Shown in pieces: positions 1,459-20,407 of a DNA stretch of 32,492 nucleotides; position 1 is the stretch's first letter, and each line of letters starts with the position of its first letter. The DNA is from a virus (lineage: Duplodnaviria > Heunggongvirae > Uroviricota > Caudoviricetes). The translations under genes and the position numbers were made by a program. The notes under the pieces were generated by a model. That model ran no database searches and was not told the DNA's origin. It was given only the letters and a program-made list of their open reading frames with translations. The stretch spans positions 1 to 32,492 of the IMG/VR virus record IMGVR_UViG_2744054675_000007; one strand, 5' to 3'.

Positions 1459-2619
1459 TTACCTCACATTTAAGTAAACTACGTTCTCCTCTTGTGCCGT
1501 ATTTGTGCCATTGCGACTTATAATCGCATCGATTTTGCTCGCGTGCTCGGTGAGATGCCCGGCTGAAAGGTGAGCGTATCTTTGAACCATTTCGAGAGTT
1601 TCCCATCCACCCATCTCTTTAAGTGCAAGAAGAGAGACTCCGGACTGAACCAGCCAGCTTGCCCAGGTGTGTCTCAGGTCATGGAATCGGAAGTTGCTAA
1701 TGCCTGCCCGCTTTAACGCTCCCTTCCATGCTTTGTTGCTATCGGTTCTCATCTTCCTTACCGCAGCTGTTTTTGTTCCGTCGCTTCGGTAGGCAGGTTT
1801 GGTGTGGACAAATACCCATCTCTTATGGAGCCCCTGCTGTTTTCTTAATATCTGGCATGCGGTTTCGTTAAGAGGAACTCCGATCGCATTGCCAGCTTTT
1901 GTTTCATCAGGGTGCATCCATGCCATTTTCTTATCCAGATCGACCTGTGACCACTCAAGGTCTGTAACGTTGGAACGGCGAAGGCCTGTCGTGATTGCAA
2001 ACATGACCACAGGGAAGAAATGAGGAGCAATTTCTGCAAACAGGCGCTTCGATTCCTCCTCTGTAAGCCATCTAATGCGTCCATTCTTAACGCGTGGTGT
2101 TGATATTTTGGGAGCCCTGTCAAGCCATCCCCATTCAACAGCCATATTGAGAATAGCGCGAAGTATTGCCAGATGTCGCGTCTTCGTTCCTTTGCTTGCC
2201 AGCTTTGGTTTATACTCCGGCACTGGCTTGCCAATCCGCAAACACCTGTCCCGGCTCATTTCCCAGTTCAGGCGATGGCGGCGGTTTTCCATCCCGTCTA
2301 CCGCCTCCATTATTTTTTCTGTTGTTATGTCAGAGAGAATGGTTTCTCTGAAGTGCAACATCCAGAACGATATAATGCTCTTGTCATCATCAATGGACTT
2401 CTTATCCGATTTCTCACGCAGCCACCGTATGCAGGCTTCCTTGAATAGCTTTTTCGGCGATTCCCCGAGATTTTTTACTCTCCACGCTTCTGCTTTCAGA
2501 CGATCGTGAAGTTCTTGCGCTTGCCTTTTGTCCGATGTTTCAAGAGAGCGCCTAACTCTTGATCCATCTGGCGCGACGAAATCGCAGTGCCACGTGCCAC
2601 CGCGTAGTTTGATTGACAT
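1459..2619 (-). CDS. int: phage integrase, tyrosine recombinase
   Basis: 386 aa ORF; C-terminal catalytic region with the R...HDLRHTWASW...RYAHL (H-x-x-R ... Y) tyrosine recombinase signature; AGGAGG RBS upstream of the ATG at 2619; adjacent to the tRNA. Confidence 0.9.
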   Translation of the reverse strand: MSIKLRGGTWHCDFVAPDGSRVRRSLETSDKRQAQELHDRLKAEAWRVKNLGESPKKLFKEACIRWLREKSDKKSIDDDKSIISFWMLHFRETILSDITTEKIMEAVDGMENRRHRLNWEMSRDRCLRIGKPVPEYKPKLASKGTKTRHLAILRAILNMAVEWGWLDRAPKISTPRVKNGRIRWLTEEESKRLFAEIAPHFFPVVMFAITTGLRRSNVTDLEWSQVDLDKKMAWMHPDETKAGNAIGVPLNETACQILRKQQGLHKRWVFVHTKPAYRSDGTKTAAVRKMRTDSNKAWKGALKRAGISNFRFHDLRHTWASWLVQSGVSLLALKEMGGWETLEMVQRYAHLSAGHLTEHASKIDAIISRNGTNTAQEENVVYLNVR

Positions 2620-2843
2620 GCTTTAACCTCCTGCACATCAACCGCATTCACCGCGCTATTGTGTCCCACAGACTTAAGCGCCGCAATGCAGTCTGACTTG
2701 CAAATGCGATATGGACTTTTAGGTTTATCTGGATTTATCTTTGCGGCCTGAAGTCGTCCACTTCGTATCCACTGTGTGATAGTGCCTTTGTCTACCTTCA
2801 GATACGACGCAGCTTCTTCACGAGTGAAGATTTCTTCTTCCAC
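2496..2843 (-). CDS. xis: excisionase-like DNA-binding protein, about 115 aa, GTG start
   Basis: HTH-like segment EEAASYLKVDKGTITQWIRSGRL; GGAGA RBS 6 nt upstream of GTG at 2843; 3' end overlaps the int start as is common for xis-int pairs. The track ORF 2496..2915 has an unsupported N-terminal extension. Confidence 0.55.
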   Translation of the reverse strand: MEEEIFTREEAASYLKVDKGTITQWIRSGRLQAAKINPDKPKSPYRICKSDCIAALKSVGHNSAVNAVDVQEVKACQSNYAVARGTAISSRQMDQELGALLKHRTKGKRKNFTIV

Positions 2844-2942
2844 CTGGAATCTCCATTTATTGGATTGACATGATTGCTGTAGGTCTGGATATCTTGAGAA
2901 ATGAACAGGCCTCATCGAGTGTGAGGCTGTGTTATTTCATGG

Positions 2943-3287
2943 TTAGTCCTTGCGTAGCTCGCTGATTCTTCTGTAAGTCTCTGGCGCTTTGTTCCCGTGT
3001 ATCTTCATTTCAGACTTCAACAGAGCAACGAGGGAATCCCATTCGTTGAGGATGCCTTTGAATGCCGGAACGCGCTTTGCAACCTTGTTGAATGAATCTC
3101 TGATTTCTGGAATCTGCTCAACAAGTGCAACGCATCGCCGGAAGTCTGCTACGTCATATGGAGCGTCGAAGTGATGACCATAGATATTCTTTTTCAGTCC
3201 ACATGCGATTGAGGCAAGAGTTGCGCTACTGATGCCGACATCGCCTGTCGATTGCCATTTCAAAACCTTCATAGCTAAATCTGACAT
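2943..3287 (-). CDS. hypothetical protein, 114 aa
   Basis: ORF with GGAGA RBS before the ATG at 3287 (MSDLAMKVLK...); a terminator hairpin lies immediately upstream. Confidence 0.55.
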   Translation of the reverse strand: MSDLAMKVLKWQSTGDVGISSATLASIACGLKKNIYGHHFDAPYDVADFRRCVALVEQIPEIRDSFNKVAKRVPAFKGILNEWDSLVALLKSEMKIHGNKAPETYRRISELRKD

Positions 3288-3295
3288 TTCTTGTC

Positions 3296-3322
3296 TCCAA
3301 TAAAAAACCGCCATCAGGCGGC
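3296..3322 (-). terminator. rho-independent terminator-like hairpin directly followed by the RBS of the 2943..3287 gene
   Basis: Minus-strand GCCGCC-TGAT-GGCGG followed by TTTTTTATT, then GGAGACAAGAA-ATG. Confidence 0.5.
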
Positions 3323-3353
3323 TTGGTGTTCTTTCAGTTCTATTGGTTACGTC

Positions 3354-3665
3354 TTATTCGATGCGCACTCCTGGTATTTCGCCTTTTGATATTGCTAAGT
3401 CATAAATTTGCGCGGCACTATACCCATCTCGCATCCATGAATCTAAGGCGCGAACAGCCTGGCTACGCTTTTTATCTTCTCTCTCATTTTTGATATCAAC
3501 GAGGACATCAACGCAATTAAGGCAAATGTGGATTTTGTCCTTACATTCGATCATGGCGGCTTTGCCATGATTTCCGCCACACAGTGAGCATAAATCTTCA
3601 GGGTCTGGCTGGTATTGCTGTAATGTTAGAGGGTTGAATGTTGAACAGACCATAATCATCTCCAT
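3354..3665 (-). CDS. hypothetical protein with putative zinc-ribbon (CxxC...CxxC)
   Basis: 103 aa ORF containing CSLCGG ... CLNC cysteine pairs; sits in the int-proximal accessory region. Confidence 0.55.
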   Translation of the reverse strand: MEMIMVCSTFNPLTLQQYQPDPEDLCSLCGGNHGKAAMIECKDKIHICLNCVDVLVDIKNEREDKKRSQAVRALDSWMRDGYSAAQIYDLAISKGEIPGVRIE

Positions 3666-3724
3666 AAAACAAAACCCGCCATAGCGAGTTCAGATAAAAG
3701 AAATCCCCGCGAGTGCGAGGATTG

Positions 3725-4009
3725 TTATTCATTGCCGATATTCACCTTTATCGCGAACACCTTTACCGGTTTATCACCGAAGTGCGGATGTGTGATTGTC
3801 TTGATTTCATATCCGTCATACGGAACATCAATTCTGCGGCTGGAATCGTCGCGCTTCGGATATCCCTTTGTGATAATCAGTCGGTCATACTCCCGGAACA
3901 TAATTCGCTTATTCCAGTAGTCATTACACAGGCGATACTCTTCCGTTTTATCTCCGCGAATCATGGCATCGAAGTATTCACCTTTAACGGCAAGTTGCAG
4001 ATTAGCCAC
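3725..4009 (-). CDS. hypothetical protein, possible ASCH/PUA-like fold, GTG start
   Basis: GGAGG RBS followed by GTG at 4009 (VANLQLAVKGEYFDAMIRGDKTEEYRL...); start overlaps the stop of the upstream gene; domain call is from the motif pattern only. Confidence 0.45.
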   Translation of the reverse strand: MANLQLAVKGEYFDAMIRGDKTEEYRLCNDYWNKRIMFREYDRLIITKGYPKRDDSSRRIDVPYDGYEIKTITHPHFGDKPVKVFAIKVNIGNE

Positions 4010-4721
4010 GGTTAACCTCCTGAGGCGGTTCTGGTAGAGGCATCCAGTGTGTGACATTGCTAATCAGACCATATTCATTAGTTTGAGGATGGTTGCCGTT
4101 ATCGTCTCCGTATTTAAGACTCTCCATAAAGCCATAATGCCTATCACCATTAACGCTCACAAAGCCGTAATAAGCAGGTATAACGCCGATCTCACACGTA
4201 ACCAGTAAAGGAAAACTAGTTCTCCAATTTAGCTCGCCGATTACAGGCATCTGCTCACTACAGCTTATCCAACCATCCGGAGTTACCGGAGAGTTGCCAG
4301 CCTTACGCATGGCGGCGCGGCAGGCTTCATCAACCATAGCTTCTACGTTTTCGAGAAGTACGTAACTGTACTGCTGCCCGCTAACCCATTCTTTTCTGCG
4401 AGGTAATGCGCGTGGGTCCGCTACAATGGATCGCAAACGTTCCAGAACAGCTGGCACATCCGGCGCTGGCGGGGCGGCGTATACTTCAATTGTCCCATTA
4501 TCAATAGGCCACTCCCCATCCTTGATGTAGTCACTTGTGCCGTCAACTTGCTGTTCTGCAATGTGGAATGCACCTATTGGTTTTGCTTCCAGCGATGCCA
4601 GCGCAATTCGTGCCAGTTCTTTAAGATTTTCGCTATATGGTGAAGTATTATCACGGTTGATTACGTGATTAGCTGTATCTATGAGAACTTGCTTTTGTTC
4701 TTCTCTGTTCATAGTGGTCAT
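4002..4721 (-). CDS. hypothetical phage protein with C-terminal DUF551-like region
   Basis: AAGGAGAG RBS before ATG at 4721 (MTTMNREEQ...); C-terminal W/G/Y-rich segment resembles DUF551 as I recall it; the track ORF extends further upstream without RBS support. Confidence 0.5.
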   Translation of the reverse strand: MTTMNREEQKQVLIDTANHVINRDNTSPYSENLKELARIALASLEAKPIGAFHIAEQQVDGTSDYIKDGEWPIDNGTIEVYAAPPAPDVPAVLERLRSIVADPRALPRRKEWVSGQQYSYVLLENVEAMVDEACRAAMRKAGNSPVTPDGWISCSEQMPVIGELNWRTSFPLLVTCEIGVIPAYYGFVSVNGDRHYGFMESLKYGDDNGNHPQTNEYGLISNVTHWMPLPEPPQEVNRG

Positions 4722-4812
4722 CTCACTCTCCTTTGATGCGAATGCCAGGGGCGCGTGGCACATTAACTTCCACGATGCGCACAGTTGGTTTGTACATCTC
4801 AATCGCTGTCAG

Positions 4813-5364
4813 CTAGTCAGCGCCGGTCATATGCTTTTCTGCATCGCCATTAGTCCATTGAACCGGCACACCAATAGCTTTCATCGCAATTTCTATTTCC
4901 CCGGCAATGGCGCTTTTCCCGCAACCAGTAAAACCAGAGACAACGACAAGAACTTCGCCTTTGGCTGGTTTTATTTCCCGCGCTTCCAGTTCTGCTATGC
5001 GCTTTTTTGCTGCTTCCAGCTTCTTGTAAAGAGCATCCCAACTTGTCGAGTTATCCATAACCAGCTTTGTAACCCGCTCTTCGCGTGATTTGTAATACTC
5101 CAGCTCATCCAGCAGTGCCAGCGCAACATTTGGATTAAAAGCAGCAATAAATTCAGCGTTTGCATAAGCCTGAACATCTGTTTCAACCAGGCAGTTAACA
5201 TGACATTCCGCAATCACACCACCGGGTTCTCCTTTCCATTTTTGACAAACAAAAACTCCTGTTAAATTGCCGTGCTGGTTAACAGATGTATGCCCTACGA
5301 TGTAGCTTCCTTTAGTTGCTTTCTCTGCCTTTTCACGCAGTGCCTGATAGTCAATTTCGCTCAC
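4813..5364 (-). CDS. hypothetical early protein, possibly Ead/Ea22-like, GTG start
   Basis: AAGGAGG RBS before GTG at 5364 (VSEIDYQALREKAEK...); the longer track ORF (to 5556) would overlap lar in another frame. Confidence 0.45.
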   Translation of the reverse strand: MSEIDYQALREKAEKATKGSYIVGHTSVNQHGNLTGVFVCQKWKGEPGGVIAECHVNCLVETDVQAYANAEFIAAFNPNVALALLDELEYYKSREERVTKLVMDNSTSWDALYKKLEAAKKRIAELEAREIKPAKGEVLVVVSGFTGCGKSAIAGEIEIAMKAIGVPVQWTNGDAEKHMTGAD

Positions 5365-5584
5365 TGTTTGCCTCCTTTGCTCGCTGATTCCACTCTGCTC
5401 TAACCTCTGAATAAAAAATCGCACAGTCATTTCCAGGCGCTGCATATTTGCTACCAGATTGAGCGCGACACGTACCGCATCGAACGAAATAGAATCGACC
5501 GCCAGAGCCATATTCAGGGTGATCTGCTTCACTGGCAACGTGCGCTGCGCCGCCACAGAATGGACATGGTAGTAGGTTGCTCAT
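5351..5584 (-). CDS. lar: Lar-family restriction alleviation protein (anti-restriction)
   Basis: [12 protein letters not shown]... N-terminus with the CPFCGG plus later CGTC cysteine pattern typical of the Lar family; ATG overlaps the stop of the upstream gene in an ATGA. Confidence 0.65.
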   Translation of the reverse strand: MSNLLPCPFCGGAAHVASEADHPEYGSGGRFYFVRCGTCRAQSGSKYAAPGNDCAIFYSEVRAEWNQRAKEANSERN

Positions 5585-6198
5585 GAATGTACTCCCTTGC
5601 GAAGTTGGTCTGCACAATGCAGCAGGGCATCCGTCGCTTCTTTCACCGTAACGATGTCGCCATCGTCCAGCCCGACAACCGTCGCGTCCTTAACGAACAC
5701 CGAGCAAAGGTCATTAAACGCCTTAGCCCGCACTTCAGCCAGGAAGGCGTCAACCTGCGGAGTTTGCACTGTGATGCTGTCACGCAGGATGAAGTAAGCG
5801 TTAAGCATTCCGGTTTCAGGCATCTCCTCTGCATTAAATGCATCGATTGCAGCATCCATTACAGGGCCAAGTGGTTGAGGGTGTGCGCTACGGATAGCAT
5901 CACATTCAGCTATGATAGATTTGATTTTATCTACCAGGTCAGATGGTGACACGTCGTCAGCTGACCGATTAAACCCAAGCACCTCCCGAACTGCGCAAGA
6001 TTCCGACATTCTTTGGTCGGCTTGCCCTGCTGACATTGAGTAGCGAGCATTCTCCGCCGCCAGCGCCGAAATCTTAGCCTCCGCTTCAGCAAATTTACGC
6101 ACCAGATATTCAGCGTTTGTTTCGTTAACCTTTAAATCTCGTGGAATGCATTTACCTTTCAGAAAACCATCCATCTCAATTAGTGACATTTGTTTCAT
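5581..6198 (-). CDS. hypothetical protein, 205 aa
   Basis: Long ORF; ATGA start/stop overlap with the upstream small ORF and with lar downstream indicates a translationally coupled operon. Confidence 0.6.
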
Positions 6199-6359
6199 TT
6201 TTTCCCACTCCGCAACATCGCATTCAGATATTTGTTGTCATTAACAGAACCGAAACTATTTCTTTTAAGCAATTCCTCTCTCGATGGCATTGGCTTTACG
6301 CGTTGGCGAATAATCATTTCTGCAGGAAGAATGCCGGGGTTGTATGCAAGTCCTCTCAT
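6195..6359 (-). CDS. small hypothetical protein, 54 aa, below the ORF-track size cut-off
   Basis: [57 protein letters not shown]; ATGA overlaps at both ends with flanking genes. Confidence 0.35.
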
Positions 6360-6637
6360 GATTTACTCTCCACGAACTGGTCAATAGCCATGCTAAGTGA
6401 CACACCTAAAGTCTCGATATGCTGCTGAATATCCTGTAGCGTCTGCGCCTGAGATAACAGGATTTCACGGTTGCATAACTCTTTAACCAGATGCTCAAAC
6501 TTGCTGTAATAACCGATACGGCTTAGTGTTTCTTTCCCTGCATTATCACCTTCTTTAATAATTCCTCTTTCACTAAGAATCAGGTCGTGTTTTGTTCCGG
6601 TAATAACGTATTTGCCTAGGTCGATGTTTAGCTTCAT
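6356..6637 (-). CDS. hypothetical protein, 93 aa
   Basis: ORF with GGAG RBS upstream of ATG at 6637; part of the coupled leftward operon. Confidence 0.55.
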
Positions 6638-6653
6638 TGTTAATTACTCCATG

Positions 6654-6968
6654 TTAATTTATTCGTATGCCTTCTCTTTCTTCATCGAGTTTTTTTAGCT
6701 TGTATCGCATAGCTCTTACTGAATAAATTGAGCGGCAGGTTGCAATTGCTATTTCTTCTGCGGAGAACTTACCGAAAAGTGATACTTCGGCTCTTGTCCA
6801 GCGTCTTCCACGAAGTCGGCTAACAATGTCAGCGCCAATCCTTGTTGCTTTCGCCATTACTGCTTTTTCAGTCCTTTCCAGTTTTTCAGCGATAACTTCA
6901 ACTGGCATTGTTGCCGCTACTTCGCGCAAGAAATCGACTTCCCATTTCTCCCAAGGAGTCTTTTTCAT
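6654..6968 (-). CDS. hypothetical protein, 104 aa, two W-containing helix-rich repeats (possible HTH/Myb-like)
   Basis: ORF immediately downstream of the Gp157-like gene in the same orientation. Confidence 0.5.
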   Translation of the reverse strand: MKKTPWEKWEVDFLREVAATMPVEVIAEKLERTEKAVMAKATRIGADIVSRLRGRRWTRAEVSLFGKFSAEEIAIATCRSIYSVRAMRYKLKKLDEEREGIRIN

Positions 6969-6979
6969 AGGCGATACCG

Positions 6980-7468
6980 TTATTTGATAAGAAGTGAAGG
7001 TTTCCCAACTTTGAGTTGAGCGCCGGGGATATTTATTCCTGCTTTTAGTTGGTGTTTGATTGCCAGTTTGTCGGCTTTAATTGTCGTTTCAAACTCAACG
7101 TATTCAGGAGGAAGGGCGCTTGAGTCGATGATTTCTACAGTTTCTGACGGTTTGCGGATTGTTACCTGGTGAATACCTGCTCGAATCTTTTTCTTGCCAA
7201 CCATTTCAAGCGATGACGCTATATATGATTTGATGCTGTCAATCTTATTTTGAATTACTTCGGCTCGCTCATTTAGTGACTTTGCCTCTTCCTTGAGGCG
7301 CTCAGCATAACCAGATTCATTTTTGATGACGGAAAGAAGTTGCTCTATTTTATCGGTAAATTCTCCTTCCATGCCTTCTATTGTGTCAGCAATCATCTCT
7401 GGCTCTAAATCTGAATCCATCAATTTTGCGTATTCATTGGCAATTTCATATAGTTTGCTCACTGGCAA
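6980..7468 (-). CDS. Gp157-family protein, a common RecT/Erf companion in siphophage recombination modules
   Basis: 162 aa ORF beginning MPVSKLYEIANEYAKL...; acidic coiled-coil protein directly downstream of recT. Confidence 0.6.
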   Translation of the reverse strand: MPVSKLYEIANEYAKLMDSDLEPEMIADTIEGMEGEFTDKIEQLLSVIKNESGYAERLKEEAKSLNERAEVIQNKIDSIKSYIASSLEMVGKKKIRAGIHQVTIRKPSETVEIIDSSALPPEYVEFETTIKADKLAIKHQLKAGINIPGAQLKVGKPSLLIK

Positions 7469-8357
7469 CCTCCAGTTTTGCTTTGCATTCTGCGTAAATG
7501 GCTTGTACGTTCTGCTGCAATTTCATTCCAGATGTCAGGCGATATGCTTCTGCAAAATATCGCTTCAAATCATCCATGTTTTCTGCCTGAGCCATTTCAT
7601 CACAAAGAAGTTGTGCTTTTTCCATTATTTCCTGCTGGCGTTTCCGTTCATCTTCGCGGATATCTTCCTCTGATTTGTGCGGCATAACTGGTTCAGTCCA
7701 CACACCTTCTTCTTCGTTTAGTACGTGAATAGCACTATCAAGACGTGATGCCTTAGGCCAATACTTGCTTGCACGCTTTACGACCGTCTTTCGCGCCATC
7801 TCATTCCAGTGATTTACCCATGGTCCTTTATCGCTGAATGCTGCCTTGCTTGTTTTCCTTACAGCCTCAATTTCAGCCAGACTCATCTCTTCCGTTAGAT
7901 AATCACCTGCTGGCGTCTTAACTGTGCAGTAAACGCCAACGATATCACCACGATCACCGAAGGCGTTGTATTTATGGGTTGGTGCTTTATCAAGCCCGTT
8001 TGACTCATAGGTATCGTTAGCATGAACAAGTTTTGCCTGACCCCATGAGATAACACCAGACTCCATTGCAATATGGAGCAATCCCATATAACTGATATCA
8101 AGGCAAACCATGCCGTCGCGCGGAACTAGATAAGCAAGTTTGCTGGCCGGGTTTAAGGTGATGCCGATCGCCGCAACATTGATGATGGCGTTCTGTGCGC
8201 TGGTTGGATTTGCCAGTGCCGTTTTAGCCAGGTAATCGTTTTTCTGGAAATACTGAATTGCAAACTGGCTTTCCTTAGCCCATGTCACCGTCTGTTCAGT
8301 CAATGCTCCGCAGAATAACTGCTCCTGCTGTTTAACGAATTCAACGATATTGCTCAT
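7446..8357 (-). CDS. recT: RecT-family single-strand annealing recombinase
   Basis: 303 aa; segment GPWVNHWNEMARKTVVKRASKYWP matches my recollection of E. coli RecT (GPWVTHWEEMAKKTAIRRLFKYLP). Confidence 0.85.
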   Translation of the reverse strand: MSNIVEFVKQQEQLFCGALTEQTVTWAKESQFAIQYFQKNDYLAKTALANPTSAQNAIINVAAIGITLNPASKLAYLVPRDGMVCLDISYMGLLHIAMESGVISWGQAKLVHANDTYESNGLDKAPTHKYNAFGDRGDIVGVYCTVKTPAGDYLTEEMSLAEIEAVRKTSKAAFSDKGPWVNHWNEMARKTVVKRASKYWPKASRLDSAIHVLNEEEGVWTEPVMPHKSEEDIREDERKRQQEIMEKAQLLCDEMAQAENMDDLKRYFAEAYRLTSGMKLQQNVQAIYAECKAKLEVASEQTI

Positions 8358-8665
8358 GCAGCTTCTCCAAAAATGTGTCTGCGTTTGAATATTGCGAAGG
8401 CATATTCAGCCTTAACTCTTTCGGTTATTGCATCCCAGAACCATTCAGCGGCTTTTTCCTGATAGTTACAGTCATCATCTTCCAGCCAGTCGATAGCGTC
8501 CTTAGTGTGTTCATCTGGTTTATATGAGCGAAGCATTTCGCTTATTGGGTCGCAACGTTTGCAGAGGAGATCAACTTCACTGTTGATTCGCTCGTAATCT
8601 TCATCAGTAAAACTTGCGATTATTTGCGATATTTCACGCTTATCATTCAGAGTCAGAATCATCAT
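8354..8665 (-). CDS. hypothetical protein, 103 aa
   Basis: ORF whose stop overlaps the recT start (ATGA-type coupling). Confidence 0.5.
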   Translation of the reverse strand: MMILTLNDKREISQIIASFTDEDYERINSEVDLLCKRCDPISEMLRSYKPDEHTKDAIDWLEDDDCNYQEKAAEWFWDAITERVKAEYAFAIFKRRHIFGEAA

Positions 8666-8746
8666 CTTTCTCCTGTTCTTTGTGCTGATTGAGCATTTTG
8701 TTCATCTGACGAATGAATTCTTCGTCTGACCAGTTATCTGTAAAAC

Positions 8747-8917
8747 TCATGGGCGGCCTTGTTGTTTCAAAATATCCCAAAGCTTTTCGAGCAAACTTTT
8801 CATTCTTGGTTGTTTAAAGTCTGCTCCGGTTAAAATATTTTTTCGTGAATGCTGTACCGATAAAATCGGGTTGAAAGGGCGAACCGATGCCGCCCCTGCA
8901 ATAGCGAACTGTTGCAT
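8747..8917 (-). CDS. small hypothetical protein, 56 aa, below the ORF-track cut-off
   Basis: AAGGAG RBS 6 nt upstream of ATG at 8917 (MQQFAIAGAASVRPFNPILSV...); stop overlaps the next small ORF start (ATGA). Confidence 0.4.
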   Translation of the reverse strand: MQQFAIAGAASVRPFNPILSVQHSRKNILTGADFKQPRMKSLLEKLWDILKQQGRP

Positions 8918-9007
8918 AGGATGCTCCTTCTGTTTGATTGCATAACGAAAACGCCTCGAGTGAAGCGTTATTGGTATGCGGTAAAGCCGCCAACAGGCGG
9001 CTATTTG

Positions 9008-9133
9008 CTATTGATTCTTTTCAAGAACATCAATGATGTCGTCCGGGTTGTCTCCGTTGTCTTCACAAAATGCTTCGAATTCAGCCCATTTCGCGCTGAT
9101 AAAATCAATTACTCTAATTAATTCGTATTCCAT
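9008..9133 (-). CDS. small acidic hypothetical protein, 41 aa
   Basis: GGAGAAAAAT RBS before ATG at 9133 (MEYELIRVIDFISAKWAEFEAFCEDNGDNPDDIIDVLEKNQ); preceded by a terminator-like hairpin. Confidence 0.4.
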   Translation of the reverse strand: MEYELIRVIDFISAKWAEFEAFCEDNGDNPDDIIDVLEKNQ

Positions 9134-9144
9134 ATTTTTCTCCA

Positions 9145-9176
9145 GACCAAAAGAATGCCGCCCATATAGAGCGGCA
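9145..9176 (-). terminator. terminator-like hairpin plus T-run immediately upstream of the 9008..9133 gene RBS
   Basis: Minus-strand GCCGC-TCTATATGG-GCGGC followed by ATTCTTTTGG, then GGAGAAAAATATG. Confidence 0.4.
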
Positions 9177-9321
9177 AGACTATCAAGGAATGATTTCCAA
9201 TAATCAGAACAAGTCGGCTCCTGTTTAGTTACGAGCGACATTGCTCCGTGTATTCACTCGTTGGAATGAATACACAGCGCAGTGTTTATTCTGTTGTTTG
9301 TGCCAAAAATAAAGGCCACTA

Positions 9322-9573
9322 TCAGGCAGCCTTGTTGTAAATGTTGCAGGTATCAAGTAAGTAATTAGATGGAGCGACATAAATTATGAATTCAGCGTTT
9401 GTCGGGTCCATCTCCATCTCTTGGCCTATTGCCATTCTTGCGTCAGTGTCATCAGCGGCGAAGCATAAAACAGCCCACGCACCCATTGTTTTAAAAAGAA
9501 CTGCAATTGGCTGTGGTTTTACTGAATTTGCGTTAGCGCGAAAATCATAAATCGCACTTTCATGAAATTCCAT
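9322..9573 (-). CDS. hypothetical early protein, 83 aa
   Basis: ORF with GAGGTG RBS before the ATG at 9573; directly downstream of N. Confidence 0.5.
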   Translation of the reverse strand: MEFHESAIYDFRANANSVKPQPIAVLFKTMGAWAVLCFAADDTDARMAIGQEMEMDPTNAEFIIYVAPSNYLLDTCNIYNKAA

Positions 9574-9581
9574 ATCTCACC

Positions 9582-9887
9582 TCAATCGTAATAAGCTGGA
9601 ATTGATTTTCCGCGTTGCTTCTGGCGGCCTGAGCATGTCACACCCATTTCACTGCGTGGCTTGCTGTAGTAAATACGATTCTGTTTACGATCGACTTCTT
9701 CTGCTTTCTTGCAGCGAAGGCTTCCGAGTGAAGCTGCTTTGTCTGCTCTGACGCAACCAGAGAGCTTTAGCGCAATCTTTCGCGCCAGTCGCTGTTCTTG
9801 CATTGCCTGTTCACGTTGAGCCTGTCTGCGTGCTCTGCGGCGATTTCTGGCGTTATCGTCAGCCAGATATGTAATGACTACTGTCAT
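9582..9887 (-). CDS. N: antitermination protein N (lambda-like)
   Basis: Arg-rich motif NARNRRRARRQAQREQ near the N-terminus and a C-terminus (YYSKPRSEMGVTCSGRQKQRGKSIP) matching my recollection of lambda N (WYSKPGERGITCSGRQKIKGKSIP); GGAGG RBS; downstream of nutL. Confidence 0.75.
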   Translation of the reverse strand: MTVVITYLADDNARNRRRARRQAQREQAMQEQRLARKIALKLSGCVRADKAASLGSLRCKKAEEVDRKQNRIYYSKPRSEMGVTCSGRQKQRGKSIPAYYD

Positions 9888-10369: not shown

Positions 10370-10410
10370 GCTTAAATTTAAGATCTCTTTAATTAATGGT
10401 CAAGAGTATT
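10370..10410 (-). promoter_or_regulatory. putative OL/PL (leftward early promoter overlapping a P22-type operator)
   Basis: Minus-strand TTGACC (-35), 17 bp, TAAATT (-10) overlapping inverted-repeat ATTTAAGATCTCTTTAAT that resembles the operators next to cro. Confidence 0.4.
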
Positions 10411-10477: not shown

Positions 10478-10496
10478 AAAGGGGCGAATGCCCCCT
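10478..10496 (-). terminator. rho-independent terminator directly after the c2 stop codon
   Basis: Minus-strand GGGGGCATTCGCCCC followed by a run of nine T. Confidence 0.55.
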
Positions 10497-11146
10497 TATG
10501 GAAGGTTTGCTAGTTTTGCATCGACAACTACGCCGATGATTTTGCAGTTTCCGTTGATCTCGATCATCGGATATTGTGGGTTAAGTGGTTTTAGAAACTT
10601 CCTGCCTGCATCAATAACTAACTTCTTGAAAGTTGCCTCGTTTTCTCCTTCGAGCTTTGCAACTACCAGTTTCCCGTTACGCGGCTCTACTTCAGGATCG
10701 ACGAGTATTATCATTCCTTCAGGGATACTGAGACCGGCCGGAGCCGTCATTGAGTCTCCCTTCACGTCCAACCAAAACGAATCTTCTGAACAGTCTACGG
10801 TTGTATCGTACCAGTTATCTATTGCACGCTTATGATATGGTTCCACAGCTTCCATCCAGCATCCTGCGCTCACCCAGCTAATCAGAGGGTATGACCCTCT
10901 TGGATCATGCCTACTGTGATAGGCAATGTTTGAAAGACTTTCCTCTCCTTTCATCAGATAGTCAGGGGAACACTTCAACGCATTAGCCAGGGCGAGAAGA
11001 TTCTCTCCATTTGGCTCTGTCTCAGAGCGTTCCCACTGAGATATGGCAACATTAGACACGCCGACCATCTTTCCAAGTGCGGCCTGCCTGATCTTGAGTT
11101 CTTTTCTCCGAGCGCGAATGCGCTCTCCCATCAATTGAGTTTTCAT
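10496..11146 (-). CDS. c2: CI-type prophage repressor (HTH plus S24 LexA-like autopeptidase domain), P22 C2-like
   Basis: 216 aa; N-terminal HTH (IRQAALGKMVGVSNVAISQWERSE); C-terminal S24 motifs (GDSM Ser and downstream KK); matches my recollection of P22 C2; divergent from cro. Confidence 0.9.
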   Translation of the reverse strand: MKTQLMGERIRARRKELKIRQAALGKMVGVSNVAISQWERSETEPNGENLLALANALKCSPDYLMKGEESLSNIAYHSRHDPRGSYPLISWVSAGCWMEAVEPYHKRAIDNWYDTTVDCSEDSFWLDVKGDSMTAPAGLSIPEGMIILVDPEVEPRNGKLVVAKLEGENEATFKKLVIDAGRKFLKPLNPQYPMIEINGNCKIIGVVVDAKLANLP

Positions 11147-17136: not shown

Positions 17137-17321
17137 ACGCCACAATTCAAACGATACCAGAGCTTCTTATCCAGACACGAGGCAATCAGACCGAAGTGGC
17201 GAGGATGCTTTCCTGCGCAAGAGGAACAGTGCTCAAGTACAACCGAGACAGCAAAGGCGAGCGTCACGTAATAGTTAACGGCGTCCTGATGGTCAAACAG
17301 GGCAAGAGGGGAAGACGATGA
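17133..17321 (+). CDS. ninH: NinH-family protein
   Basis: 62 aa; TIPELLIQTRGNQTEVARMLSCARGTVLKY resembles lambda NinH (TIPDMLVEAYGNQTEVARRLKCSRGTVRKY). Confidence 0.75.
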   Translation: MNATIQTIPELLIQTRGNQTEVARMLSCARGTVLKYNRDSKGERHVIVNGVLMVKQGKRGRR

Positions 17322-17836
17322 GCATAAGAGAACTAAACCTCACCAAAGAGCAGCACGAGTGGCTGAATGGCTGGCTTGAACTGTGGGGCGCATGGGTTTA
17401 TTCAGGTCGTCTGGAAAAGCGCATGAGCAGCGTAATAGCGAAGTTCATGGAGAGCGTAGAGCCGGGAAGAATTATGACAAGGCCAATGTGTAATGATGAT
17501 GATGGAATGTTGATTTCTCAGGTCGTCGATTCCGTCATGTACATTGACAAGAAAGCCTTTGGCATCCTCCTCAGCTACTACGCTCATGGTTCATCTAAGC
17601 GAGCAATTGCATCCTACTATCACGCGACTGCAAAGCCACGCAAGATGTGTGGACGTGGTGGCGAGGGATGGAGAAAACCTTCACTGGCAACCTGTAGAAA
17701 CGAAATTGACGACATCCTGAAAGCGTCGTTATTTGTTTTGTACCAGCCAATGCAAAATGCTTTCAAAATGCGTAAACGTGTTGAGAAAGTTAAGCATGTT
17801 GCTGTTAAAAACCTTGACATGCAATTAGCCATTTAG
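17318..17836 (+). CDS. Q: late-gene antiterminator Q (family uncertain)
   Basis: 172 aa ORF at the canonical Q position between ninH and the late promoter/lysis genes; Cys/His-containing; assignment mainly positional. Confidence 0.55.
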   Translation: MSIRELNLTKEQHEWLNGWLELWGAWVYSGRLEKRMSSVIAKFMESVEPGRIMTRPMCNDDDGMLISQVVDSVMYIDKKAFGILLSYYAHGSSKRAIASYYHATAKPRKMCGRGGEGWRKPSLATCRNEIDDILKASLFVLYQPMQNAFKMRKRVEKVKHVAVKNLDMQLAI

Positions 17837-17898: not shown

Positions 17899-17973
17899 GG
17901 GTCAGTCGTATAAAGGTCATTACGGAAGGCTGTTAACCTTCTTATCGTGGTTCGAGTCCACGCTGTCCCGCCA
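17899..17973 (+). tRNA. phage-encoded tRNA-like gene, anticodon GTT (Asn)
   Basis: 75 nt hand-folded cloverleaf: acceptor GGGTCAG/CTGTCCC (one T-T mismatch), anticodon stem GAAGG/CCTTC with loop CTGTTAA, canonical T-arm CGTGG-TTCGAGT-CCACG, 3' GCCA. Confidence 0.45.
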
Positions 17974-17978
17974 AACAT

Positions 17979-18054
17979 GCTGATTTAGCTCCAATGGTAG
18001 AGCAGTCGCCTTGTAAGCGAATGGGTAGCGGGTCAAGTCCGTTAACCAGCACCA
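17979..18054 (+). tRNA. phage-encoded tRNA-like gene, anticodon TGT (Thr)
   Basis: 76 nt hand-folded cloverleaf: acceptor GCTGATT/AACCAGC (one mismatch), D-arm GCTC-CAATGGTA-GAGC, anticodon loop CTTGTAA, T-arm AGCGG-GTCAAGT-CCGTT, 3' ACCA. Confidence 0.45.
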
Positions 18055-20112: not shown

Positions 20113-20407
20113 CCATGTAGGCATTACAAAGCACATCTACGGGTGGGCTTGATAATGAAACCGGAGTTAATTTCTGGTCACCAATTAACGGCAGTACAGC
20201 GAAACAACCCAAGCCAGTAAGTGGGGAAATAACACTGGCAGCCACTGAAAGATGAACCTCCTGCCTTATGGCAAAAAAGATTCTTTGTGGTGGCGGACTG
20301 ATGGAAAGACATCGGATAGAATAAAACAGTGGCTAGGGTAGCTCCCGAAAAGCGGAATCGTCACCGCCAGCCACTGAATCTATGACGAACAACTAGACGA
20401 GGTTGAT

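Follow-up and report, generated by a model that had tools for sequence, protein, structure and literature searches.

A Lar-family zinc-ribbon gene among the accessory genes of the leftward operon of a P22-like Escherichia coli prophage

Are the genes that overlap a Lar-family gene its functional partners, or do they only share its operon? The question is raised by the minus strand of a viral DNA of 32,492 nucleotides (nt) (IMG/VR record IMGVR_UViG_2744054675_000007, positions 1 to 32,492; this whole stretch is referred to here as the window), where the gene of a 77-amino-acid (aa) Lar-family protein (lar, 5351..5584) lies fourth in a chain of five overlapping genes. A sequence-only reading of this DNA had taken the tight coupling of the chain as the sign of a counter-defence or host-takeover module. 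The evidence assembled here points with good confidence to another reading, namely an accessory segment of the PL operon of a P22-like prophage, in which the Lar-family gene is one of several independent accessory genes and the overlapping junctions are kept by linkage.

The conserved block that carries lar

The lar gene is carried by a conserved block of DNA of about 440 bp (roughly 5315..5751, minus strand) made up of the 3'-terminal 171 nt of the upstream gene for a 205-aa protein, lar itself and the first 50 or so nt of the downstream Ea22-like gene; both overlapping lar junctions are inside this block. Its nucleotide sequence is 94-99% identical to that of four related loci (L001, the prophage of E. 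coli JCKP02, and L002, L005 and L007), whereas what remains of the Ea22-like gene is not homologous, nor is the middle of the 205-aa gene, whose homology is confined to its two ends. Where the flanking genes are non-homologous, lar retains 97-99% nucleotide identity, and across relatives its protein is 90-99% identical as against 32-56% for the flanking proteins. The overlaps on both sides of lar appear to persist because the breakpoints lie inside the flanking coding sequences, so that the junctions travel with the gene. Under this scheme, lar would move between phages within the ~440-bp block, with exchange occurring inside its two neighbours.

The junctions are accordingly widespread among relatives. 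All four overlaps of the chain (4, 4, 4 and 14 nt) also occur in the JCKP02 prophage, and seven related loci (from E. coli, Salmonella phage ST104, Kluyvera and IMG/VR contigs) retain both junctions of lar; the overlaps are thus conserved in related prophages, and the lack of such conservation, which the sequence-only reading had named as refuting it, was not observed. A longer stretch, running from the gene of a 54-aa DUF2737 protein through the 205-aa gene and lar to the N-terminal part of the Ea22-like gene, shows 99% identity to prophages whose recombination module is of the Erf or Rad52 type, with Abc2, in place of RecT/Gp157. The gene of the DUF5405 protein, with which the chain begins in the window, is missing from these Erf/Rad52-type prophages with their otherwise identical block. 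In three contexts the 205-aa gene seemed to occur without a downstream lar, and these cases were rejected since the DNA there holds an uncalled lar.

The ea region of P22-like phages offers a close parallel. In ST104 (orf8-orf10, likened in the notes of that record to hkaG-hkaI of HK620), HK106 and Salfasec13b, the genes for the DUF2737, phrog_614, Lar and Ead/Ea22 proteins follow each other in the same order and with the same junctions as in the window. Their lar copies are 96.6-97.8% identical to that of the window at the nucleotide level, but different alleles make up most of Ea22 and the middle of the 205-aa gene. These P22-like phages possess Erf/Abc recombination genes and lack DUF5405, and their lar is mostly unannotated.

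The gene chain and its prophage setting

The coordinates, the ATGA junctions and the 54-aa open reading frame (ORF) are as the sequence-only reading had described them, and all five ORFs are real genes and not chance ORFs because each matches a protein family. All on the minus strand, they encode, in order of transcription, a 93-aa DUF5405 protein (6356..6637; Pfam, phrog_154), the first of the overlapping chain; the 54-aa DUF2737 protein (6195..6359; Pfam, phrog_1117), with an ATGA overlap at each side; the 205-aa mosaic coiled-coil protein (5581..6198; phrog_614); the 77-aa Lar-family C4 zinc-ribbon protein (PCPFCG...CGTC...WNQR; PF14354, phrog_599); and a 183-aa Ead/Ea22-like protein with a GTG start (4813..5364; Pfam Ead_Ea22). 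The tetranucleotide ATGA is common to the three successive junctions between the 93- and 54-aa, the 54- and 205-aa, and the 205- and 77-aa genes, and the 77-aa gene (5584..5351) overlaps the 183-aa gene (5364..4813) by 14 nt. Every start is preceded at 6-9 nt by a GGAG-type Shine-Dalgarno sequence within the preceding gene, for instance AAGGGAG 7 nt from the ATG of the 77-aa gene. The start of lar is ATG 5584 and not TTG 5617, and its homologues are also 77 aa long with the same start. For the Ea22-like gene the start is GTG 5364, where the Pfam match begins at residue 2 and a strong AAGGAGG stands 6 nt upstream, in a frame that is open to 5556. The upstream neighbour of the 93-aa gene is a 104-aa gene (6654-6968) 16 nt apart, and the next operon gene after the chain, separated from it by a 91-nt gap, encodes a 239-aa DUF551-domain protein (4002..4721, minus strand; Pfam DUF551, E 4.8e-11). 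A programmed Lar-Ea22 frameshift at the T6 run 5413-5418 (minus strand) was suggested by P0140, a Lar(1-57)::Ea22 fusion that corresponds to the loss of one T from this run. It was rejected: P0140 comes from one public contig of 1.5 kb and is a probable assembly error, and in the lar frame the run forms no canonical slippery heptamer.

Overlapping junctions are generic in the leftward operon and not special to the chain. They make up 8 of its 17 junctions, and overlaps of 1 or 4 nt recur across the right arm as well. Among Lar genes in 70 diverse viral contigs, the upstream gene overlaps lar in 44 and ends at most 20 nt away in 12 more. Re-initiated or coupled translation is usual for phage operons, and small phage early genes are generally packed tightly.

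A PL-like promoter (10375..10403, minus strand; TTGACC-17-TAAATT, a consensus match only), located leftward-downstream of a cI-like repressor gene (10496-11146), probably drives the whole leftward operon, including the N-like, RecT and Gp157 genes and the chain. No minus-strand terminator-like site was found between 8950 and 3723 by pattern search, and the promoter and the terminator-free stretch together are consistent with a single long leftward transcript. After infection or induction, N-antiterminated transcription from PL would thus proceed through RecT and Gp157 and then through the five genes as one terminator-free mRNA, and translation may re-initiate or be coupled across the chain, each Shine-Dalgarno sequence lying within the 3' end of the preceding gene.

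The element is a P22-like prophage integrated at tRNA-Thr(CGU) (thrW) beside proA in E. coli. Both proA and tRNA-Thr(CGU) are present at the window start and are 100% identical to E. coli, and positions 2081-9698 of the window show 100% identity to the E. coli assembly GCA_001620375.1. The nearest isolated phages are P22-like, namely ST104 and Salfasec13b (Lederbergvirus) and HK106. The integrase gene (1459-2619) is followed by a helix-turn-helix excisionase-like gene (2496-2915), then, over about 4 kb, by small leftward genes, the five-gene chain among them, and then by the genes for Gp157 (6980-7468), RecT (7446-8357) and the N-like protein (9582-9887). The large ORFs of the right arm fit replication, lysis and head genes, one of them being a portal-sized ORF of 732 aa.

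The genes of the chain are small, share one strand and lie between xis/int and the recombination genes, inside the PL unit; the chain is an ordinary part of the non-essential early-left ea or exo-xis accessory region of a P22-like prophage. In lambdoid phages the exo-xis region is mosaic, non-essential and transcribed early from pL, and its published phenotypes, like those of the ea genes, concern the lysis-lysogeny decision and not anti-restriction (PMC8614690, PMC10834534). Lambda's exo-xis region has the same location and strand, from the recombination genes to xis, with early pL transcription and non-essential small genes, and the lambda-type mosaic Ea22 is likewise built of an N-terminal segment followed by a coiled coil and a C-terminal domain that varies, DUF551 being among those described (PMC8614690, PMC10834534). 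Apart from Ea22, however, the window has none of the lambda exo-xis genes, and a Lar-family gene is not mentioned in these two papers.

The Lar-family protein and the rival readings

The 77-aa protein is a C4 zinc-ribbon member of the Lar family (PF14354). It matches the Pfam profile Lar_restr_allev over positions 2-58 of 58 (38.5 bits against a gathering score of 28.6; E 1.4e-9) and phrog_599, 'Lar-like restriction alleviation protein' (E 1.2e-12), and the earlier assignment of the CPFCGG-containing ORF as Lar-like is thereby borne out. The hallmarks of the family are all present, namely the PCPFCG knuckle, the second CxxC of the C4 zinc ribbon and the WNxR C-terminal helix, in a protein of the expected size of roughly 55-85 aa. 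An alignment of 56 family members shows no variation at C7, P8, F9, C10, G11, C36, C39 and R68, while at least 90% of the members keep P6, W65 and N66. The confident AlphaFold2 (AF2) model of the protein (predicted local distance difference test score, pLDDT, 84.7; predicted TM-score, pTM, 0.69) is a three-stranded zinc ribbon packed on a C-terminal helix (residues 55-66) that bears WNQR. A Foldseek search of this model against the PDB gave no match below E 0.1, and comparison of the five chain proteins with the sequences of solved structures yielded nothing usable.

The characterised relative is Lar/RalR of the Rac prophage (E. coli K-12 b1348, 64 aa), which shares with the 77-aa protein the PF14354 match, the PCPFCG...CxxC ribbon and the WNxR C-terminal helix. 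Its gene also lies between recombination genes and xis in a leftward operon, and overlaps the downstream gene by 8 nt. The 77-aa protein differs from its 64-aa counterpart by two insertions, one of which is a GNDC(P/A)xFY segment with an extra cysteine. Moreover, K52 of Rac Lar is replaced by Q in the window protein, no RalA homologue was found in the window, and the downstream neighbour is rcbA in Rac and the Ea22-like gene in the window.

An anti-restriction role of the 77-aa protein, by homology to Rac Lar, is plausible and is our best, if tentative, guess. On this homology, the protein would bind the type IA restriction-modification complex of the host, so that unmodified phage DNA is methylated by it rather than cut. 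Restriction alleviation is preferred because the protein belongs to the same family, its gene occupies the same position between recombination genes and xis as in Rac, and the prophage lacks Ral. Rac Lar is reported to alleviate restriction and to enhance modification by EcoKI (King & Murray 1995, as summarised in PMC4041452 and PMC6158711). The Ral protein of lambda, a small pL-expressed protein that alleviates restriction by speeding up the de novo methylation that type IA enzymes carry out (PMC12707154), is a functional analogue with the activity reported for Rac Lar but without sequence similarity to the 77-aa protein. No homologue of lambda Ral was detected in the window by Pfam or tblastn, and Lar would therefore not be redundant there. 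The JCKP02 prophage carries a lambda-type Ral gene (L001 8750-8950) in addition to the same Lar allele; if Ral and Lar both act on type IA enzymes, there would be redundancy in that prophage.

Several points weigh against the favoured reading as a whole. The 77-aa protein does not reach the curated cutoff of the stricter NCBIfam model TIGR03655 anti_R_Lar (29.4 versus 39.6 bits; E 7e-7), and its identity to Rac Lar/RalR is 26% over 42 residues, mostly zinc ligands. The anti-restriction role ascribed to this Lar subfamily would be a transfer from Rac Lar. That protein has also been described (Guo et al.) as a non-specific DNase toxin controlled by the small RNA (sRNA) RalA (PMC4041452). The promoter, terminator and coupling claims made above rest on sequence patterns. 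Finally, lar is constantly flanked, in elements of Escherichia, Salmonella and Kluyvera, by a QLRKG-ending coiled-coil protein on one side and an Ea22-like one on the other; together with the existence of Lar::DUF551 fusions, this leaves room for a functional link between lar and its neighbours.

If the description of Rac RalR/RalA as a type I toxin-antitoxin pair were extended to the window, the 77-aa protein would be a RalR-like non-specific DNase toxin. This is unlikely, and among the accounts weighed here it is given the least credence. Six positions implicated in RalR toxicity or DNase activity were compared (14, 37, 39, 49, 51 and 52). K52, whose replacement by Q abolishes both DNase activity and toxicity, aligns with a natural Q67 (WNQR versus WNKR) in the protein and its subfamily; four of the other five toxicity positions differ as well (C14 to G, T37 to S, Y39 to S, R49 to E), and N51 alone is kept. 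Among the 56 family members, the residue aligned with K52 is R in 21, Q in 13 and K in 8. A blastn search of ralA against the window returned only chance matches of 10-14 nt, a search that covers homologous sRNAs, and in an Rfam scan of the window only tRNA and int-alpA reached the gathering score. The gene is carried by functional temperate phages such as HK106 and ST104, and the 77-residue zinc-ribbon model has no recognisable catalytic constellation. The functional label of the protein should nevertheless be regarded as provisional, because its subfamily differs from RalR at the residues that are critical there.

The remaining alternatives bind lar to its neighbours. In one of them, the QLRKG-ending coiled-coil protein, Lar and the Ea22-like protein constitute a three-gene functional unit, Lar being an adaptor or a DNA- or protein-binding subunit of Ea22-type oligomers that tune the lysis-lysogeny decision, and not acting in anti-restriction. 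At all loci that are closely or moderately distantly related (E. coli, ST104, Kluyvera, IMG/VR), the same sandwich recurs with its junctions overlapping, its second flank being an Ea22-like or a coiled-coil protein, the block moves as a unit among prophages with different recombination modules, two independent Lar-DUF551 fusions exist while DUF551 is also a C-terminal domain of Ea22 variants (PMC10834534), and a pro-lysogenic phenotype of Ea22 has been published. Co-evolving partners would be expected to show the opposite of what is seen here, where the flanking genes are exchanged, with 32-56% identity and non-homologous centres, and lar stays 90-99% identical. No family is common to the genes next to Lar in 67 viral contigs of greater distance, the sole recurrence being a second Lar gene upstream (4 of 59), and breakpoints inside the neighbouring genes suffice to explain the linkage. 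The three-gene unit is therefore considered improbable, and slightly more so the wider proposition that the Lar zinc ribbon of enterobacterial lambdoid prophages belongs to the Ea22 system as a module open to exchange, which works jointly with the coiled-coil proteins on either side and is not a stand-alone anti-restriction protein; were it true, most members would bear a misleading 'Lar family' label. The sequence-only reading took a different direction, proposing that the 93-, 54- and 205-aa proteins serve counter-defence or host takeover in a dedicated module expressed together with Lar. Their genes are indeed co-transcribed and probably translationally linked early genes, accessory regions of this kind are known to hold anti-defence genes, and the functions of DUF5405, DUF2737 and phrog_614 are uncharacterised. 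However, the ten proteins of the region gave no meaningful PADLOC match, the 93-, 54- and 205-aa proteins showed no interpretable defence match in Pfam or NCBIfam and no similarity to solved structures, DUF5405 is dispensed with in otherwise identical blocks, and coupling of the kind seen in the chain is generic in the operon. In addition, the 205-aa protein appears to be an all-helical coiled-coil mosaic, modelled with low confidence, and the name 'hNH endonuclease' borne by its relatives is not backed by any domain. With 8 of 17 operon junctions overlapping, no PADLOC match and no recurring Lar neighbours in the 67 contigs, tight coupling does not single out a counter-defence module, and such a module is very unlikely. 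The 93-aa, 54-aa and coiled-coil neighbours stand as independent accessory genes; for none of them is a partnership with Lar demonstrable.

Neighbouring genes and the annotation of lar

The 205-, 93- and 54-aa proteins had been listed as unknown, which holds for their functions, as these are uncharacterised, but not for their families, since they belong to the recognised phrog_614, DUF5405 and DUF2737, respectively. The 93-aa protein scores 26.3 bits against Pfam DUF5405 (cutoff 21.6; E 1e-5) and matches phrog_154 (E 4e-31); it is 99% identical to a protein of the JCKP02 prophage (L001) that the Prokaryotic Genome Annotation Pipeline (PGAP) names 'DUF5405 family protein', and has no relative among solved structures. 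The 54-aa protein matches DUF2737 over residues 1-53 of 53 (E 4.9e-31) and phrog_1117 (E 6e-38), and is homologous to ST104 orf10, which is likened in the ST104 record to HK620 hkaI and P22 orf56.

The 205-aa and 183-aa proteins are both mosaic coiled-coil proteins, the latter of the Ea22 type and the former probably so. The 205-aa protein matches phrog_614 (E 1.5e-42) and has no Pfam match, Ead/Ea22 (PF13935) included, yet it shares phrog_368 and the coiled-coil mosaic build with the 183-aa Ea22-like protein, for which PF13935 is the Pfam match. An exact copy of it is present in public E. coli assemblies (P0001). The alignment of its family reveals a conserved N-terminal module, a coiled coil, an exchangeable centre, an invariant motif (T-x-x-x-D-A-x-L-x-E, with T146, D150, A151, L153 and E155) and a near-invariant C-terminal QLRKG, and its AF2 model consists of helices only, at low confidence (pLDDT 67.7, pTM 0.28). 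The codons of the QLRKG end carry the Shine-Dalgarno sequence for lar, and this motif may be held at the nucleotide level as well as at the protein level. At 5581-5600 and in loci L001, L002 and L005-L009, the K-G-V codons form the Shine-Dalgarno sequence AAGGGAG or AAAGGAG of the downstream gene. The name 'hNH endonuclease' given to relatives of the 205-aa protein (P0012, P0014, P0020-P0037) was rejected, as no HNH or other Pfam domain is present; its occurrence in NCBI records is probably a propagated misannotation.

The 183-aa protein (Pfam Ead_Ea22, E 3.4e-27, residues 2-126) begins like any standard Ea22, with its N-terminus and coiled coil, and ends in a C-terminal domain that is short and unusual. 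Ea22 proteins have been described as mosaic tetramers with variable C-terminal domains, DUF551 among them (PMC10834534), and their published phenotype is pro-lysogenic. The C-terminal ~55 aa of the window protein include a Walker-A-like GFTGCGKS (residues 144-151; 4912-4935, minus strand), and this part gives weak matches to the P-loop start of APS kinase, ArsA and FtsY-type proteins (E 0.003-0.3). The piece is too short for a complete NTPase and makes an odd C-terminal domain for Ea22. As to DUF551, the Lar zinc ribbon is fused straight to this domain in two proteins of independent arrangement, P0136 (153 aa, E. coli) and P0146 (133 aa). P0136 follows the window Lar sequence through residue 75 and continues with a GNSPVTPDGW linker and DUF551; the same linker also precedes the C-terminal DUF551 of the 239-aa protein of the window (4002-4721).

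The same lar was found in 47 of 5426 complete E. coli genomes, always under the PGAP name 'Lar family restriction alleviation protein', whereas in phage records the allele occurs 12 times and is annotated in only one. Its 90% cluster was seen on 479 contigs, and the search for the Lar family returned 527 proteins; scans for relatives covered genome contigs (one genome per species, 2 loci) and viral contigs (71), and one of the prophages, L084, is degraded and uninformative. In three of six public gene calls lar is unannotated. The Ea22 frame remains open for 64 codons 5' of its GTG, right across lar (4813-5556, minus strand), and gene callers therefore often call the long ORF and leave lar out. 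Beyond such annotation hygiene the significance of the locus is small, as a RefSeq label exists and the region type is already in the literature. With the 77-aa protein, a known family gains one more uncharacterised member, in a type of region that is likewise known. To our knowledge, Rac Lar/RalR is the sole characterised member of that family, whose name rests on one 64-aa protein with a conflicting toxin description.

Two minor features were noted elsewhere in the window. An int-alpA RNA (Rfam) at 20326-20388 (plus strand; 42 bits against a gathering score of 35.8) lies between ORFs of the lysis and terminase regions, far from the integrase gene, which is the usual site of this motif. Two phage-borne tRNAs, Asn(GTT) at 17899-17973 and Thr(TGT) at 17979-18054 (both plus strand), form a pair directly 3' of a 172-aa ORF (17318-17836).

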